Shown here in pieces: positions 1 to 4,310 of a stretch of 64,000 nt of DNA (position 1 is the first letter of the stretch; each line of letters begins with the position of its first letter). Made by a program: the position numbers and the translations under genes. This stretch comes from Candidatus Bathyarchaeota archaeon. GTDB taxonomy: Archaea; Thermoproteota; Bathyarchaeia; Bathyarchaeales; Bathycorpusculaceae. The notes under the pieces are model-generated. The model ran no database searches. It saw only the letters and a program-made list of their open reading frames with translations, and was not told the origin of the DNA. Where the stretch lies: positions 192,001 through 256,000 of the forward strand of contig CAVRFW010000009.1 in the NCBI GenBank assembly GCA_963720565.1, in the 5' to 3' direction.

Positions 1-134
1 GTAGCAGTGGAGTCTTCAGCCGCATGACGCAATGTTCGCTCGTCATCAGCCGTTACGATGACCCTGCTGAAAATTCCTGCGAAAGCTTCAGCGTAAGTAT
101 TCTCAACCTTATCAATATCTGATATTTTATCCAA
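1..134 (-). CDS. ftr: Formylmethanofuran:H4MPT formyltransferase (Ftr) family protein, probably the FtrII/EhaS-like paralogue; partial, runs off the window
   Basis: Not in the ORF track. Manual translation from TTG at 134 gives MDKISDIDKVENTYAEAFAGIFSRVIVTADDERTLRHAAEDSTA, matching the Ftr N-terminal pattern (ED/NT-F/Y-AEAF...R-V-I-V/I-TA). Start overlaps the upstream stop codon. Confidence 0.8.
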   Translation of the reverse strand, partial: MDKISDIDKVENTYAEAFAGIFSRVIVTADDERTLRHAAEDSTA

Positions 135-1209
135 GCCTCCCAACGGCTTCTCCCCTGACTTCCTTTCTAAACTTACTGCTTTCCTTAACCAACGTATCCA
201 TATTTTGAGCTGTTACTATTTGAACCTTGGGAAGGACAGAAGAGTAAACAGACAGGTATTGTTCGAGTAACGGTTCGACCACTCCTGCTCGTTTAAGAGC
301 ACGGCTATTCCAGTTTTCACACAACCTCAGAGTGTTTCTCTTCCCTTTCTTGAAGAAAAGACTGGCTATTACGGCAGTCACTATGCTGCTTTCAGACAAC
401 ACCGCTATTTCCGAGTTTTCAACCGCGTAGCCATTGCCGTTAAAAGAGACAGTTAACCCGCCGTTTTCCTTCACAAGTTTGAAGGCTTCAACGTCTGTTA
501 TGCTGTCTCCAACATACATAACGTCGCTCAAGTTCGCATGCAACTTTGCCACAGCATCTTCTATAGCTTCAGCCTTTTGGCTACCGCCGACCGTTTTGAC
601 TTCCGAGAAGACTCTGCCAATGCTCATTTTCGGAATTTCACTCCAAAAAATCCTATCTAGCTGAGCGATTATCTCCTGATCCCTAGCTGAAAAATCTCCT
701 ATCGCCTTTGCCCCTCTGGGAATACAAATCAATGGCGTTTGAACGATTTCATCTGCGATTTCTCGAAGCCTCCCCTTCTCTTTAGAGTTAACCGAGTACT
801 TGTCAATACTCAATCTGGTGCAGTACGTGTTGGCATAGGGGAAATCTAACGCTTCGCAGAGAGCTTCTATATAGTGTTCGTAACTCGTACTGACGATAAA
901 GGCACTAGCCATTGCTCTTACATGCTCCAGTGTGCTTTTGCTGTTGGCGATAAGCAACAGATTCTCAGCTGAGAATTCTCCGATTTGACCATCTGTTACG
1001 CCGTAGGCTTTCAGGAAGGGCAATATCAGTTTTAGCGTGCTGCCGGCAGAGTAGCCCTGCCTTTTAAGAACGTCAGCAAGCACATCATCATACTTGCTGA
1101 TGACCGTGAAGAGCTTATCGCCGTTTGGAACAAAATGAGCGGTTATCTCGAAGGCGTTATCGTTTCTGCTTATGGGTCCCTCACAGTCTGACATAAAAAC
1201 AGGTTTCAA
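127..1209 (-). CDS. HAD-superfamily phosphohydrolase, EhaR-like
   Basis: N-terminal DCEGP..NDNAFE (variant HAD motif I), VSTSY, and YVGDSITD (HAD acidic motif). Resembles the family annotated as energy-converting hydrogenase A subunit R. Confidence 0.8.
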   Translation of the reverse strand: MKPVFMSDCEGPISRNDNAFEITAHFVPNGDKLFTVISKYDDVLADVLKRQGYSAGSTLKLILPFLKAYGVTDGQIGEFSAENLLLIANSKSTLEHVRAMASAFIVSTSYEHYIEALCEALDFPYANTYCTRLSIDKYSVNSKEKGRLREIADEIVQTPLICIPRGAKAIGDFSARDQEIIAQLDRIFWSEIPKMSIGRVFSEVKTVGGSQKAEAIEDAVAKLHANLSDVMYVGDSITDVEAFKLVKENGGLTVSFNGNGYAVENSEIAVLSESSIVTAVIASLFFKKGKRNTLRLCENWNSRALKRAGVVEPLLEQYLSVYSSVLPKVQIVTAQNMDTLVKESSKFRKEVRGEAVGRLG

Positions 1210-2621
1210 GGCTTACGCCTCAACTTCTCCATATGGCTCAAACTTTTAGCTATATGCTGTTTCGAAGCCACATCGCTTCTATTCCACAAAGCTCCACCTT
1301 CAATCGCCCTCGCAGCCTCCAACGAATTCTGCCGTGCTTCCTCAATGGTTTCGCCAACGCCTAAGACGCCAACAGCTCTGGATTTCAACGCGTAGTTCTT
1401 GCCGTTTCTGACTTCCATGGATCCCGGATAAACACGGATCTTTCCACGGCACTTACTAACGAGAGAATTCGCTTTGGAAAGATCGACTGGAGTGTCAACC
1501 TCAGCAGCATTCACCAGGTCTGGAAAAACATTCGAGTATCCTCCGTAACTTGGCGGAACCTTGTAGGTCAAGACGGTGGCGGCTTTCTCCATTTCCAAGC
1601 GGGTCAAATTTCCATCAATAATCTTGAGGCAAACGTCAACGAAATCGTCCTTTAAAACTGGAAGAATATTCATGATTTCAGGATCTCCAGGGCGACTATT
1701 GTTCTCGAGAACTTTGATGCCGGAGCCTGTATGCATGAAAGCCAAGTACAACGGAACACCCCTCAAGGCCGAATCATCGCTAATCTTAGCCTTCCATTCT
1801 TGGAAGATTCTTGTGGCAAGCGCTAACTCGTCTTCCCGATCGGATATGGTTAGAAAAGGCAGTTTGTCACTTGCATCTTTGTAGGAACCCATCCCGCCAG
1901 TGTTTGGTCCCTTGTCGTCGTCAAATGCTCGTTTGTAGTCTCGCGTGTCAGGTAATGGAATAAAATGCCTGCCGTCGCATAGAGCTTGAAAACTTGATTC
2001 TTCACCATCAACTTTCTCTTCAATAATCACGGTGCCATACTGGAAGTTCGACATGAAATGCTCGAAGAGTTGCTCCCGAGTAGCGAAGTGATCGCCCCAG
2101 ACTCCCACTCCCTTTCCAGCTGCTGGTTTATCAGGCTTTACAACCGCCTTGTTCTCAAGCTCATCAAGCCAACTATTAACCGCCTTCTTAACGTCGCCAA
2201 TTCCTTCATAGTCGTCGCGATTGAAAATCTTGAAACGCGGGTTAGCTTCCGGCGCTATCTCTTCGAAAAGCAAACGTTGCTGAACCTTGCTAATTTCTAT
2301 CGCGTACTCTTGAGTGGGGCATATGACAGGTATGCCTGTGCGTTTCTCAATTAGGTCTCGAACGCCCTCTATTATAGGCTTTTCCGGACCAACCATGGCA
2401 AAATCGATTCTGTCCTTATTATCCTCAGCGAACTTGCAGATATCTTCGATATTCAAATCCGGTATAACCGCGTGTTTGAACGCTTTCTCCACGTTGAAAG
2501 GATTGCGTTGCTTGTCTGCGACGTAAAGTTCAACTTTGTGGTTCGGGCTTCTGGCGAAGGCATCAACTATTGCTGCCTCGCGTGCCCCGTATGAAACGAC
2601 TAGTATGCCTACTCTGTCCAT
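1206..2621 (-). CDS. purD: Phosphoribosylamine--glycine ligase
   Basis: GARE, VGPE, AAGKGV, DYKRAFDDDKGPNTGGMG and NSRPGDPE motifs. Confidence 0.93.
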   Translation of the reverse strand: MDRVGILVVSYGAREAAIVDAFARSPNHKVELYVADKQRNPFNVEKAFKHAVIPDLNIEDICKFAEDNKDRIDFAMVGPEKPIIEGVRDLIEKRTGIPVICPTQEYAIEISKVQQRLLFEEIAPEANPRFKIFNRDDYEGIGDVKKAVNSWLDELENKAVVKPDKPAAGKGVGVWGDHFATREQLFEHFMSNFQYGTVIIEEKVDGEESSFQALCDGRHFIPLPDTRDYKRAFDDDKGPNTGGMGSYKDASDKLPFLTISDREDELALATRIFQEWKAKISDDSALRGVPLYLAFMHTGSGIKVLENNSRPGDPEIMNILPVLKDDFVDVCLKIIDGNLTRLEMEKAATVLTYKVPPSYGGYSNVFPDLVNAAEVDTPVDLSKANSLVSKCRGKIRVYPGSMEVRNGKNYALKSRAVGVLGVGETIEEARQNSLEAARAIEGGALWNRSDVASKQHIAKSLSHMEKLRRKP

Positions 2622-2682
2622 GACAGATCGCCTGTTTACATAGAGAATTAACTGGAACGCTTAATTTGTTTTTTCGCTTGGT

Positions 2683-4164
2683 CTATTGGGAATCTTCGTG
2701 TTGCTCGTAGATTCTGCTTTTCTCTTCGTAACCGTTGAGGAATTTCTGTTTCATTTCGTCAGCAATCTCCTGCGCTAAGGGCGTAGGATACTTGCCCGTG
2801 ATGCATGCCAGACACAATTCATCCTGCGTCTGGCCTGTTGCGCGAACCAATCCGTCTATTGACTGGTAGCAAACCGCATCTGCACCAATGATTCTGGCAA
2901 TTTCATCTGGACTATGCTTCGAACCGATCAATTGCCCGTAAGTAGCCATGTCTATGCCATAAAAGCACGGTCCAATAATACGTGGAAAAGTAACGAACAT
3001 GTAGACTTTCTTAGCACCTGCTTTACGAATTTTTTCTATTACTACCTTAGTTGTGTCGCCACGGACTATGCTGTCCTCGGTTAGTATCACGCGTTTCCCA
3101 TCAACTTTTGGACCTAAAATGTTTACTTTGCGGTCTATCGTATTGAACCTCTCTTCGTTGAGGAGAATGAAAGCTCTTTCGGTCACGTACCGATGCCTGC
3201 GAGACGCCCGTTCCCACCTGAGTCCAGACTCTTCATGAACTCCCATTGCAGGGTCATCTCCAGTCTCAGGCACCGAAAGTACCACGTCCGCATCTTTCGC
3301 GATTTCAGGATACTCATGCACGATGTTTCTTCCGAAGTCTTCACGGATTTCATAAACGTATTTTCCGTTAAACCGCGAGTCAGGTCTAGAGAAATATGCA
3401 TACTCAAATGCGCAAAACGCCCTGCGTGGGTTATTGATTATCTGTGTTCGTTTGAACCCTTTTTCTGAAACCGTTACGAGTTCGCCTGGCTCCAATTCAA
3501 AATCTCTTGTGAAATTGTTAATGTCCAAACTCACAGTCTCCGACGAAAAAGCAAAAGTAGTTCCGTCTTGGCTGCGCCCAGCGCATAAGGGTTTAATGCC
3601 ATGGGGATCCTTGAAAGCGAAAAAGTCACCGGTTCCAGTTATGCCGGCCACAGAGAATGCTCCATCGACACTCTGCATACAAGCTCCAACAGCTGCCGTC
3701 AGGTCTTTTCCCTTCTCAAATTCAAGTAACAGTTTATGGCATAGCAAGTCTGAATCGCAACTGCAAACAAAATCTTGGAAGTTATCATTAATTTCATGTT
3801 TAAGTTGAAATGTGTTAACTATGTTGCCGTTGAACGAGAGTGCAATCTTCAAGTTTCCCATCGAGGCTAAAACTGGCTGGGTCCCCTGAATTATACTCAC
3901 ATCGTCACATTTGCCAGATGTTGTGTATCTGATGTTTCCGATGCCGATGTGACCAGGCAAGCGCTCGAACCATTCATGCAGAGCACTAGTTTTCAGTTTT
4001 GGGACTAGGTCGAGGTTTCTGTAAACGTGAAATTTCTCTTCGTTGAAAGTGAGGAAACCATGTGACTGATGTCCCCGGTGGTTTTGGGCGCGAAGACCCC
4101 AGTAAACGTGTGGGAAGACAGATTGCTTTTCAAAGTTTATTGCACCGAACACGCCACAGCCTAT
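2683..4164 (-). CDS. purF: Amidophosphoribosyltransferase (start extended beyond the ORF track so that the catalytic Cys is included)
   Basis: CGVFG N-terminus, HRG, RYTTSG, NGNIVN, CAFEYAYFSRPDS, EDSIVRGDT PRPP loop, CFYGIDM and CLAC. Confidence 0.93.
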   Translation of the reverse strand: MGCGVFGAINFEKQSVFPHVYWGLRAQNHRGHQSHGFLTFNEEKFHVYRNLDLVPKLKTSALHEWFERLPGHIGIGNIRYTTSGKCDDVSIIQGTQPVLASMGNLKIALSFNGNIVNTFQLKHEINDNFQDFVCSCDSDLLCHKLLLEFEKGKDLTAAVGACMQSVDGAFSVAGITGTGDFFAFKDPHGIKPLCAGRSQDGTTFAFSSETVSLDINNFTRDFELEPGELVTVSEKGFKRTQIINNPRRAFCAFEYAYFSRPDSRFNGKYVYEIREDFGRNIVHEYPEIAKDADVVLSVPETGDDPAMGVHEESGLRWERASRRHRYVTERAFILLNEERFNTIDRKVNILGPKVDGKRVILTEDSIVRGDTTKVVIEKIRKAGAKKVYMFVTFPRIIGPCFYGIDMATYGQLIGSKHSPDEIARIIGADAVCYQSIDGLVRATGQTQDELCLACITGKYPTPLAQEIADEMKQKFLNGYEEKSRIYEQHEDSQ

Positions 4165-4310
4165 TTTTAATCCCTTCTGTTAATGTCGAATGATGCCAAA
4201 AGGAGCTTTATCTACTTTTAGCACATTTTTAGTTAAAAGCCTCCTATTAATGAGGCGACCGAGGAACTACAGCATTCCGCAAATGCGGGCGTACGTGTGG
4301 CGAGTTTGCT

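Follow-up and report, generated by a model that had tools for sequence, protein, structure and literature searches.

Which enzyme carries out the third step of purine synthesis, the formylation of glycinamide ribonucleotide (GAR) to formylglycinamide ribonucleotide (FGAR), in an archaeon whose genome yields neither PurN nor PurT, the two enzymes known for it? The question is raised by a stretch of 64,000 nucleotides from a Candidatus Bathyarchaeota genome (contig CAVRFW010000009.1, positions 192001-256000, written C9:192001-256000 below; this whole stretch is called the window), at whose first edge purF and purD are followed by a gene for an EhaR-like HAD-fold protein and by the beginning of a gene for a paralogue of the formyltransferase Ftr, here called Ftr2. 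Past the edge, Ftr2 is completed and a PfkB-type kinase gene follows. Because this trio sits among purine genes in a genome with neither known step-3 enzyme, the HAD protein, Ftr2 and PfkB together probably supply step 3, with a probability of about 0.6 on the sequence comparisons reported here. The genome comprises 2.09 Mb in 13 contigs, has 45% G+C and is an estimated 88.8% complete.

Within the window the four genes are co-directional and all lie on the minus strand, as the preliminary description of this DNA had it. They are purF (amidophosphoribosyltransferase, 2683..4164, matched by TIGR01134 and GATase_6/7), purD (a GAR synthetase of a divergent type, 471 amino acids, 1206..2621, with GARS_N, GARS_A and a weak GARS_C), the HAD gene (360 amino acids, 127..1209, a phosphoserine-phosphatase-like core plus an extra C-terminal domain, with weak Pfam and NCBIfam HAD matches) and the 5' end of Ftr2 (EhaS-like, 1..143, PF01913 with E 3.4e-9), which runs past the window edge and has 44 codons inside it when started at TTG 134, or 47 when started at TTG 143. 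A spacer of 61 nucleotides separates purF from purD; purD and the HAD gene overlap by 4 nucleotides (1206-1209), and the HAD gene and Ftr2 by 8 nucleotides with the TTG-134 start or 17 with TTG 143, so that the overlaps of 4 and 8 nucleotides reported earlier stand, the latter with the TTG-134 start.

The neighbouring stretch (L001, C9:176001-192200) holds the complete Ftr2 (L001:15214-16143, minus strand, 309 amino acids), with both lobes of the family above their Pfam cut-offs (PF01913, 143.5 bits, cut-off 27; PF02741, 184.2 bits, cut-off 25). It scores above the cut-off of the subfamily model NF002554 (335.5 bits, cut-off 297) and below that of the fhcD equivalog TIGR03119 (225.6 bits, cut-off 292.6). 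Its end overlaps by 4 nucleotides the gene of a ribokinase-like PfkB kinase (L001:14303-15217, minus strand, 304 amino acids, PF00294 at 177 bits), and convergent to this are purQ (L001:13502-14320), purL (L001:11114-13498), purS (L001:10866-11117) and purM (L001:9674-10808, plus strand, or C9:185674-186808, in two overlapping frames). A kinase of this kind and the later pur genes are the very neighbours that the preliminary description had named as support for its proposal. The full order is purF-purD-HAD-Ftr2-PfkB, with overlaps of 4, 8 (or 17) and 4 nucleotides, facing purQ-purL-purS-purM; genes for purine steps 1, 2, 4 and 5 flank the trio, and step 3 is the sole gap at the locus.

Is the missing enzyme encoded elsewhere? 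No PF00551 match (the PurN domain) was obtained in the whole 88.8%-complete genome, and the best match there to the PurT model TIGR01142 scores 53 bits (cut-off 502) and falls in a 1096-residue frame resembling carbamoyl-phosphate synthase; the absence of purN and purT described earlier for the window extends to the rest of this assembly. In the same incomplete genome the C-terminal domain of FolD was not found, and Fhs gave no match above cut-off. Since FwdA (815 bits) and Mch (386 bits), both on contig C1, and a canonical Ftr1 on contig C5 are present, the organism is predicted to make formyl-tetrahydromethanopterin (formyl-H4MPT), with no sign of a folate formyl pool and with neither known step-3 enzyme, about 11% of the genome lying unseen. 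In the genome-wide search PF01913 hits two Ftr genes, Ftr1 at 190.6 bits and Ftr2 at 145.4 bits, whose proteins are 36% identical; the locus at issue is not that of the genome's only canonical Ftr, a separate copy of which is the one on C5. The other formylation of purine synthesis, step 9 (formylation of aminoimidazole carboxamide ribonucleotide with formate and ATP), is covered by PurP, for which two adjacent genes are found (G000:C5:419848-421313).

This pairing of Ftr2 with the lack of PurN and PurT was followed through 381 Thermoproteota genomes, searched five times (with an Ftr2 profile and for PF00551, PurT-like, HAD and PurD proteins). The scores of the Ftr2 profile are bimodal, with 47 genomes at 335 bits or more (full-length proteins at 407-471) and Ftr1-type matches stopping at 280 bits. 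PF00551 occurs in 115 genomes, HAD in 50 (all in the window's own class), PurD in 257, and a PurT-like gene (E 1e-60 or better) in 90, with scores in bands of 435-510, 300-329 and 206-268 bits; because only three of these 90 pass the curated cut-off, the lower bands are referred to as PurT-like and not as proven PurT. The 257 PurD-positive genomes divide into those with PF00551 only (108), with a PurT-like gene only (87), with both (1), with Ftr2 and neither PF00551 nor a PurT-like gene (46), with HAD and no Ftr2-type match (5) and with none of these (10). Put differently, PF00551 or a PurT-like gene accompanies PurD in none of the 46 Ftr2 genomes versus 199 of the 211 others. The 12 that remain among the 211 comprise two with EhaR and an Ftr2 cut by a contig end and ten with nothing detected, seven of them less than 90% complete; in the HAD-only genomes G109 and G348 the HAD gene lies at a contig end, followed in G109 by an Ftr2-like fragment. 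The mutual exclusion that was expected from the original proposal is what these genomes display.

Within the window's class (57 genomes), Ftr2 or a remnant of it is found in 47, HAD with a divergent PF00551 enzyme in three, PF00551 alone in one, a PurT-like gene in five and none of them in one (G021, which is also without purD). A single family, f7, holds both states, with Ftr2 and EhaR in G029 versus a PurT-like gene in G002, G117 and G342. The position of the genes follows the same pattern: the slot right after purD is occupied in relatives by a PurT-like gene (G306, G246, G008, G158, G344 and G211) or by PurN (G165), and in the window's genome by HAD-Ftr2-PfkB. Judged from gene content, Ftr2 and PurN/PurT-like genes appear to be complementary, with no contradiction and few independent events.

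The result that we consider most telling comes from the genomes in which Ftr2 is exchanged for something else. In G378, purF, purD, a divergent PF00551 formyltransferase, HAD, PfkB and FolD lie on one strand, and the HAD protein is 44% identical to that of the window. The formyltransferase reaches 42 bits and matches profile positions 63-148 only; its best matches in the Protein Data Bank (PDB) are all PurN, with 'HP' and 'DEGP' stretches that align. G037 and G069 also have the HAD gene, with a PfkB gene overlapping FolD by 32 nucleotides a few genes away and the PF00551 enzyme elsewhere (12 kb away in G069, whose copy is 50% identical to that of G378). It would thus appear that, where Ftr2 is missing, a PurN-fold formyltransferase and FolD fill its place, and the HAD protein and the kinase stay. 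An exchange of this kind connects the trio with the transfer of formyl groups in purine synthesis, and since the HAD gene is missing from all five Bathyarchaeia of the PurT type, HAD and kinase seem to go with a non-standard formyltransferase and not with pur genes in general. The G378-type variant would use folate.

Is Ftr2 the kind of protein from which this reaction can be expected? In a tree of 53 full-length representatives at 50% identity, 16 Ftr2 rows separate from 37 canonical Ftr1 rows with a Shimodaira-Hasegawa-like approximate likelihood ratio (SH-aLRT) support of 99, and in a tree of 134 rows (one in four of the genome loci and six further selected ones, together with all metagenome loci that could be used, 15 representatives of Ftr2 and 13 rows of Ftr1) 121 Ftr2-type rows split from the 13 Ftr1 rows with a support of 100. 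The window's Ftr2 groups apart from the genome's own Ftr1 and from the Ftr1 representatives, outside the canonical clade, and the proposed distinction between canonical Ftr and the paralogue is thereby borne out. The protein matches all four solved Ftr proteins (E 3e-49 to 2.6e-25), with extra residues at about 83-92 relative to them, and E257, invariant in 16 Ftr2 sequences, falls in the alignment on the Glu that opens 'EIVI' in 1M5S, 1M5H, 1FTR and FhcD (6S6Y); to equate it with Glu252 in numbering, an offset of one residue is assumed. In the part of Hemmann 2019 that was available, this Glu of FhcD is described as stabilising the oxyanion of the tetrahedral intermediate, and the family as working through a primary amine that attacks formyl-H4MPT at its formyl carbon. 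By analogy, the chemistry of the Ftr family is the one that GAR formylation needs. In the ESM Atlas only Ftr clusters were matched, labelled Bathyarchaeota and Methanobacteriota, and the cluster labels of ten Ftr2 representatives include 'Thermoproteota archaeon' and 'Candidatus Aenigmarchaeota'. Among the longer Ftr proteins of the 50%-identity representatives, none is fused to HAD or PfkB; two fused Ftr1-type representatives (P0161 and P0166) carry an amidohydrolase (FwdA-like) or GXGXG (FwdC-like) part, and the other long ones have no extra Pfam domain.

As for the partners, the HAD protein has the Rossmann-like core with a cap that marks its superfamily and keeps all four catalytic motifs of its fold (nucleophile Asp, Ser/Thr, Lys and the acidic pair); among 23 sequences, the most distant 19% identical, D8, E10, G11, S107, K212 and G234-D235-S-I-x-D239 do not vary. 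The residue two places after the nucleophile is Glu (E10), the usual one in HAD proteins being Asp. Its profile finds one solved relative, PDB 1Y8A (E 3.9e-50), the Archaeoglobus fulgidus protein AF1437, which was deposited as hypothetical. The AlphaFold model, with a predicted local distance difference test score of 94.2, retrieves in Foldseek first 1Y8A (template-modelling scores 0.80/0.91) and then SerB-type phosphoserine phosphatases, MtnX and 5'-nucleotidase III. Due to these invariant motifs and structural matches, the protein looks like an active small-molecule phosphatase or phosphotransferase. That it belongs to the EhaR family, as had been claimed, agrees with the Joint Genome Institute (JGI) labels of its homologues ('energy-converting hydrogenase A subunit R'), and the further link to EhaR, EhaS and EhaT comes from published descriptions and from 1Y8A. 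Through the latter, the EhaR family extends to A. fulgidus, in a genus listed without PurN and PurT in the accessible text of Brown 2011 and in an order listed with Ftr2 in that of Chadwick 2022. PfkB keeps the C-terminal catalytic DTTGAGD motif (alignment to 3H49); its best named models are ribokinase (TIGR02152, 172.4 bits, cut-off 299.65) and ribose-1-phosphate kinases, and it scores below the cut-off of every named kinase model.

The arrangement is well kept in close relatives. Eighty genome loci with an Ftr2 68-81% identical to that of the window were collected, and their neighbours counted by tblastn with the window's own proteins. Nearly all are titled Bathyarchaeota or Bathyarchaeia; the other titles (three Euryarchaeota and a single Thorarchaeota, Sulfotelmatobacter and Nitrososphaerota each) hold equally similar genes. 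HAD adjoins Ftr2 in 71 of the 80 loci (two of the nine without it have no room upstream) and PfkB in 74; one pur gene or more occurs in 75, and the whole order purF-purD-HAD-Ftr2-PfkB / purQ-purL-purS-purM recurs in 44, so that the pur linkage is not peculiar to this genome. Among the neighbours matched by the window's proteins in these 80 loci there is no hydrogenase gene.

A mechanism can be drawn up in which all three proteins take part. The HAD protein would remove the 5'-phosphate from GAR, Ftr2 would formylate the resulting riboside, and PfkB would restore the phosphate with ATP, delivering FGAR to PurLQS at the cost of one ATP, like PurT. In Ftr2, a primary amine would attack the formyl carbon of N5-formyl-H4MPT, as in the rest of its family, with the glycinamide amine as acceptor in place of the aminomethyl group of methanofuran. 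The Ftr reaction itself lies near equilibrium and could be drawn forward by the two irreversible flanking steps or by formylglycinamidine ribonucleotide (FGAM) synthetase. We infer the substrates, the donor, the order of the three reactions and the roles of HAD and kinase; this scheme is the simplest one that gives each of the three proteins a job, and the gene order HAD-Ftr2-PfkB, which matches the proposed order of reactions, is a weak hint in its favour. From the genes at hand, we give formyl-H4MPT about an even chance of being the donor, and a route through the riboside seems rather doubtful. As HAD and kinase are found in company with a PurN-fold formyltransferase too, the formylation of GAR by an Ftr is probably not the whole of the chemistry. 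Only tentatively can a third route to purine C8 be suggested, one that would run through a riboside, with a constant HAD and kinase and an exchangeable formyltransferase (either Ftr-fold with formyl-H4MPT or PurN-fold with FolD), and in which EhaR, EhaS and EhaT would be purine enzymes, filling the gap in Archaeoglobi, Methanobacteriales, Methanopyrus and ANME-1.

Several observations weigh against the trio as the step-3 system. The genome is 88.8% complete, which qualifies its lack of PurN and PurT; PurT-like matches scoring less than about 330 bits are not verified as PurT enzymes; and, because related genomes are not independent, the exclusion overstates the number of independent events. 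Two genomes (G280 and G304) have Ftr2 and no EhaR match with the window's protein, G280 having a remote EhaR-like open reading frame (ORF) upstream. According to the available text of Brown 2011 (PMC3261824), formyl-H4MPT is not believed to donate formyl groups, although this is countered by the family's own reverse reaction, in which a primary amine is formylated from formyl-H4MPT (Hemmann 2019, as far as accessible). The rationale for a phosphatase and a kinase lacks proof, PurN and PurT acting on GAR directly. Furthermore, Ftr2 is solitary in four of the 80 related loci (L036, L043, L064 and L073), where the only HAD protein of the genome is 27-33% identical and encoded elsewhere. More distant genes (37-77% identical to the window's) were gathered in a metagenome scan that was ordered by likeness to the distant representative P0124 and is for this reason not a random sample: the 79 loci with an Ftr2-type ORF under strict criteria comprise 20 in the module, 28 that could not be judged and 31 (out of 51 judged) in which Ftr2 stands away from pur, HAD and PfkB, and the pur linkage is accordingly not general in the Ftr2 clade. 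On the 134-row tree, module-embedded genes form two clades (the label needs 10 changes, versus 34.5 in shuffles) and solitary ones form subclades of their own, filling three other clades, with varying neighbours in the 18 metagenome loci that were annotated. Dispersed operons are common in archaea, for which reason the solitary loci do not refute the purine role of the trio; the argument from linkage covers a part of the Ftr2 family only, and Ftr2 may work without adjacent partners or have a further role. The original claim, that the Ftr paralogue formylates GAR from formyl-H4MPT, is in sum favoured by the linkage, the Ftr1/Ftr2 split and the exclusion, and is weakened by the solitary distant genes and by the company that HAD and kinase keep with a PurN-fold enzyme.

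The solitary genes raise another question: could Ftr2 alone be the GAR formyltransferase, acting on the nucleotide, with HAD and kinase in side jobs (salvage of intermediates that have lost their phosphate, removal of a toxic phosphate ester or supply of ribose phosphate for the synthesis of phosphoribosyl pyrophosphate, PRPP)? The four genomes with an intact solitary Ftr2 would be readily understood in this way, since they have purD (325-438 bits, beside unrelated genes in the two neighbourhoods looked at), and neither PF00551 nor PurT was detected in them, and so would the solitary majority of the judged metagenome loci. One of the four (L036, genome G381) keeps just upstream of Ftr2 a relic of 53 HAD residues (G381:C1:2417712-2417870, 58% identical to residues 308-360), a putative trace of a broken-up module beside a formyltransferase that has stayed whole. 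This explanation is nonetheless unlikely, because side jobs do not account for a HAD gene that is confined to the window's class, there accompanying Ftr2 or its contig-end remnant in 47 genomes and divergent PF00551 in three and missing from all five PurT-like Bathyarchaeia, nor for its persistence, with the kinase, when Ftr2 is replaced by another formyltransferase fold; translational coupling and the invariant catalytic motifs argue for a core role as well. It is improbable, too, that the trio serves a different ribose-phosphate or one-carbon pathway (PRPP supply, or the synthesis or repair of methanopterin or methanofuran), with step 3 left to an unrecognised enzyme such as a PurP paralogue (ATP-grasp, formate-dependent). 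The adjacent pair of PurP-like genes, the ribokinase and ribose-1-phosphate kinase models to which PfkB comes closest below cut-off, and the presence of Prs (L120, where a small HAD also flanks Ftr2) or of RpiA and SurE (L164) beside some solitary Ftr2 genes would fit it, but the same tandem PurP pair is found in G002, which has a PurT-like gene, no PurP match is found in G378, which has the HAD/kinase module, and both the exclusion and the swap for a PurN-fold enzyme with FolD would be left unexplained.

In a different division of labour, the substrate formylated by Ftr2 would be free glycine (or some other small amine), and N-formylglycine would be joined to phosphoribosylamine by the divergent PurD, producing FGAR without free GAR. 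PurD does have peculiarities that would suit this: that of the window reaches 254 bits with TIGR00877 (cut-off 288), it is likewise weak in the listed genomes with an EhaR match (E 1e-61 to 1e-81) versus E 1e-99 to 1e-113 in the five Bathyarchaeia that have a PurT-like gene but not EhaR, and G381-G384 have the higher-scoring type, so that a distinct, low-scoring PurD co-varies with HAD; a gene for glycine-cleavage H-protein beside solitary Ftr2 in L123, L161 and L171 points the same way. The idea is nevertheless highly improbable, given that HAD and kinase get no role in it, that N-formylglycine as a substrate of any PurD lacks support, and that G360 is an exception to the co-variation, its PurD being low-scoring (E 8.2e-73) in a genome with no EhaR match. 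Least credible of all is that Ftr2 is a second isoenzyme of the catabolic or anabolic Ftr reaction, its place among pur genes being inherited synteny without meaning. Both lobes and the catalytic Glu are kept, the score exceeds the NF002554 cut-off, and Ftr2 is transcribed at a lower level than Ftr1 in anaerobic methanotrophic archaea (ANME) according to the accessible part of Chadwick 2022 (PMC9012536), all of which an isoenzyme could share; the deep, well-supported split from Ftr1, with 36% identity to the genome's own copy, the reading frames that overlap with pur-linked genes and the exclusion with PurN/PurT-like genes speak against it.

How does the proposed purine role of the trio compare with the systems already described? 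Ftr (1FTR/2FHJ, 1M5H and 1M5S) and FhcD (6S6Y) share with Ftr2 the two-lobe fold of PF01913 plus PF02741, the oxyanion Glu and a family reaction that moves a formyl group between H4MPT and a primary amine; unlike them, Ftr2 forms a separate clade, lies in a purine cluster and not beside Fwd or Mch genes, and has a glycinamide compound as its proposed acceptor. EhaR, EhaS and EhaT, at the end of the eha operon of Methanothermobacter, are HAD-like, Ftr-like and ribokinase-like in the same order as the trio (a likeness drawn from paper descriptions and JGI labels), but the trio lies between purD and purQLSM, and not at the end of an eha hydrogenase operon. PurN resembles the module in its proposed step and, in G165, in its position after purD, and a divergent enzyme of its fold replaces Ftr2 in G378; its fold is unrelated to that of Ftr2 and its donor is a folate, 10-formyl-tetrahydrofolate. 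To our knowledge, PurN needs no phosphatase or kinase. With PurT the module shares the step, the ATP cost (if the kinase step is real) and, through PurT-like genes in related archaea, the slot after purD; PurT is an ATP-grasp enzyme that uses free formate via formyl phosphate (Brown 2011, PMC3261824, in its available text). A PfkB kinase and a HAD phosphatase act on one sugar phosphate in HldE with GmhB, in heptose synthesis, and in Salmonella the aminoimidazole riboside kinase, also of the PfkB family, phosphorylates a purine intermediate in its riboside form; these are likened to the trio by function only and not by sequence, and they are not known to be tied to a formyltransferase. The trio is probably a new use of a known enzyme family and a three-part system unlike PurN or PurT.

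The gap that it would fill has been pointed out before. The accessible text of Brown 2011 (PMC3261824) lists seven purine-making archaea without a recognisable GAR formyltransferase (Archaeoglobi, four Methanobacteriales and M. kandleri). Ftr2 is reported from Archaeoglobales, M. kandleri, M. marburgensis and ANME-1 in the accessible part of Chadwick 2022 (PMC9012536), which also describes ANME-1 as being without PurN and PurT and the enzyme as 'as yet unidentified', and in which Ftr2 and this gap are not connected. In Kaster 2011 (PMC3087415), as far as available, Ftr-like EhaS and ribokinase-like EhaT are co-transcribed with eha and have no known role, those in methanogenesis or sugar activation being called 'very unlikely'. 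No paper linking Ftr2 or EhaS to GAR formylation was found in a literature search whose coverage did not extend to subscription journals and supplements. The locus thus offers three concrete candidate genes for a long-missing archaeal step in a group abundant in sediments, and the prediction from it is that anabolism can draw its formyl groups directly from the pool of methanopterin; if this were true, three genes that have long counted as Eha hydrogenase subunits would be reassigned to purine synthesis.

Some features of the locus and of its relatives deserve separate mention. The listed ORF of purF (4152..2683) begins with a GTG that would remove the catalytic Cys, and automatic calls from GTG 4152 would give a PurF without its nucleophile. 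Upstream (4152-4182, minus strand), the frame reads K-I-G-C-G-V-F-G, with no ATG, GTG or TTG before the Cys, and the codon two before this Cys, tallied over 65 related loci, is ATA in 51, ATG in nine, ATC in four and ATT in one, often with a stop just upstream. Because the GTG start loses the Cys, no standard start exists upstream and ATA prevails in relatives, purF most likely starts at a non-canonical ATA (4164-4162) and encodes a normal, Cys-bearing PurF (Cys after Met-Gly), in agreement with the end coordinate 4164 given in the preliminary description; a PurF lacking the Cys had been suspected and was dropped once this start was recognised. With TIGR01134 (cut-off 350), the protein reaches 315.8 bits and the genome frame, over model positions 1-432, 323.3 bits. 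At the other end of the cluster, purM is split into 227 residues (AIRS N domain) and 204 residues (AIRS_C), and is a single ORF in 49 of the 49 related loci that hold it; the split is a frameshift, from an assembly error or a broken gene.

Elsewhere in the genome, a second Mch-like gene (G000:C11:40807-41768, minus strand) is matched in three pieces in different frames and is probably a frameshifted or decayed paralogue. The second copy of the tandem PurP pair, which recurs in G002, has no assigned role (cf. Brown 2011 on PurP cluster II, in its available part). As regards transcription, six short contigs of the metatranscriptome library X19 are 90-99% alike to parts of PfkB, the HAD gene, the end of purF and purQ; they are given no weight, because none bridges two genes and DNA carry-over is possible, and run X20 is probably DNA.

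Around Ftr2 in other organisms, the H-protein gene lies directly downstream of the solitary gene in one subclade (L123:8915-9337, L161:8910-9323 and L171:4507-4929), followed in L161 by an MtdB-like gene, and may be a sign that the subclade has a function tied to glycine or C1 units. Genes of carbon monoxide dehydrogenase/acetyl-CoA synthase are near Ftr2 in L196 and in the genome locus L096 (G280, from another class). In the latter (L096:8480-11484), a very remote EhaR-like ORF (19-24% identical), which retains the catalytic motifs, shares 4 nucleotides with the start of Ftr2, and a canonical Ftr1 lies convergent right after Ftr2, followed by CdhC/CdhD genes. Finally, L045 carries an inverted duplicate in which purF, purD, HAD and Ftr2 are followed by PfkB, Ftr2, HAD, purD and purF on the other strand, and which may be a palindromic assembly artefact.

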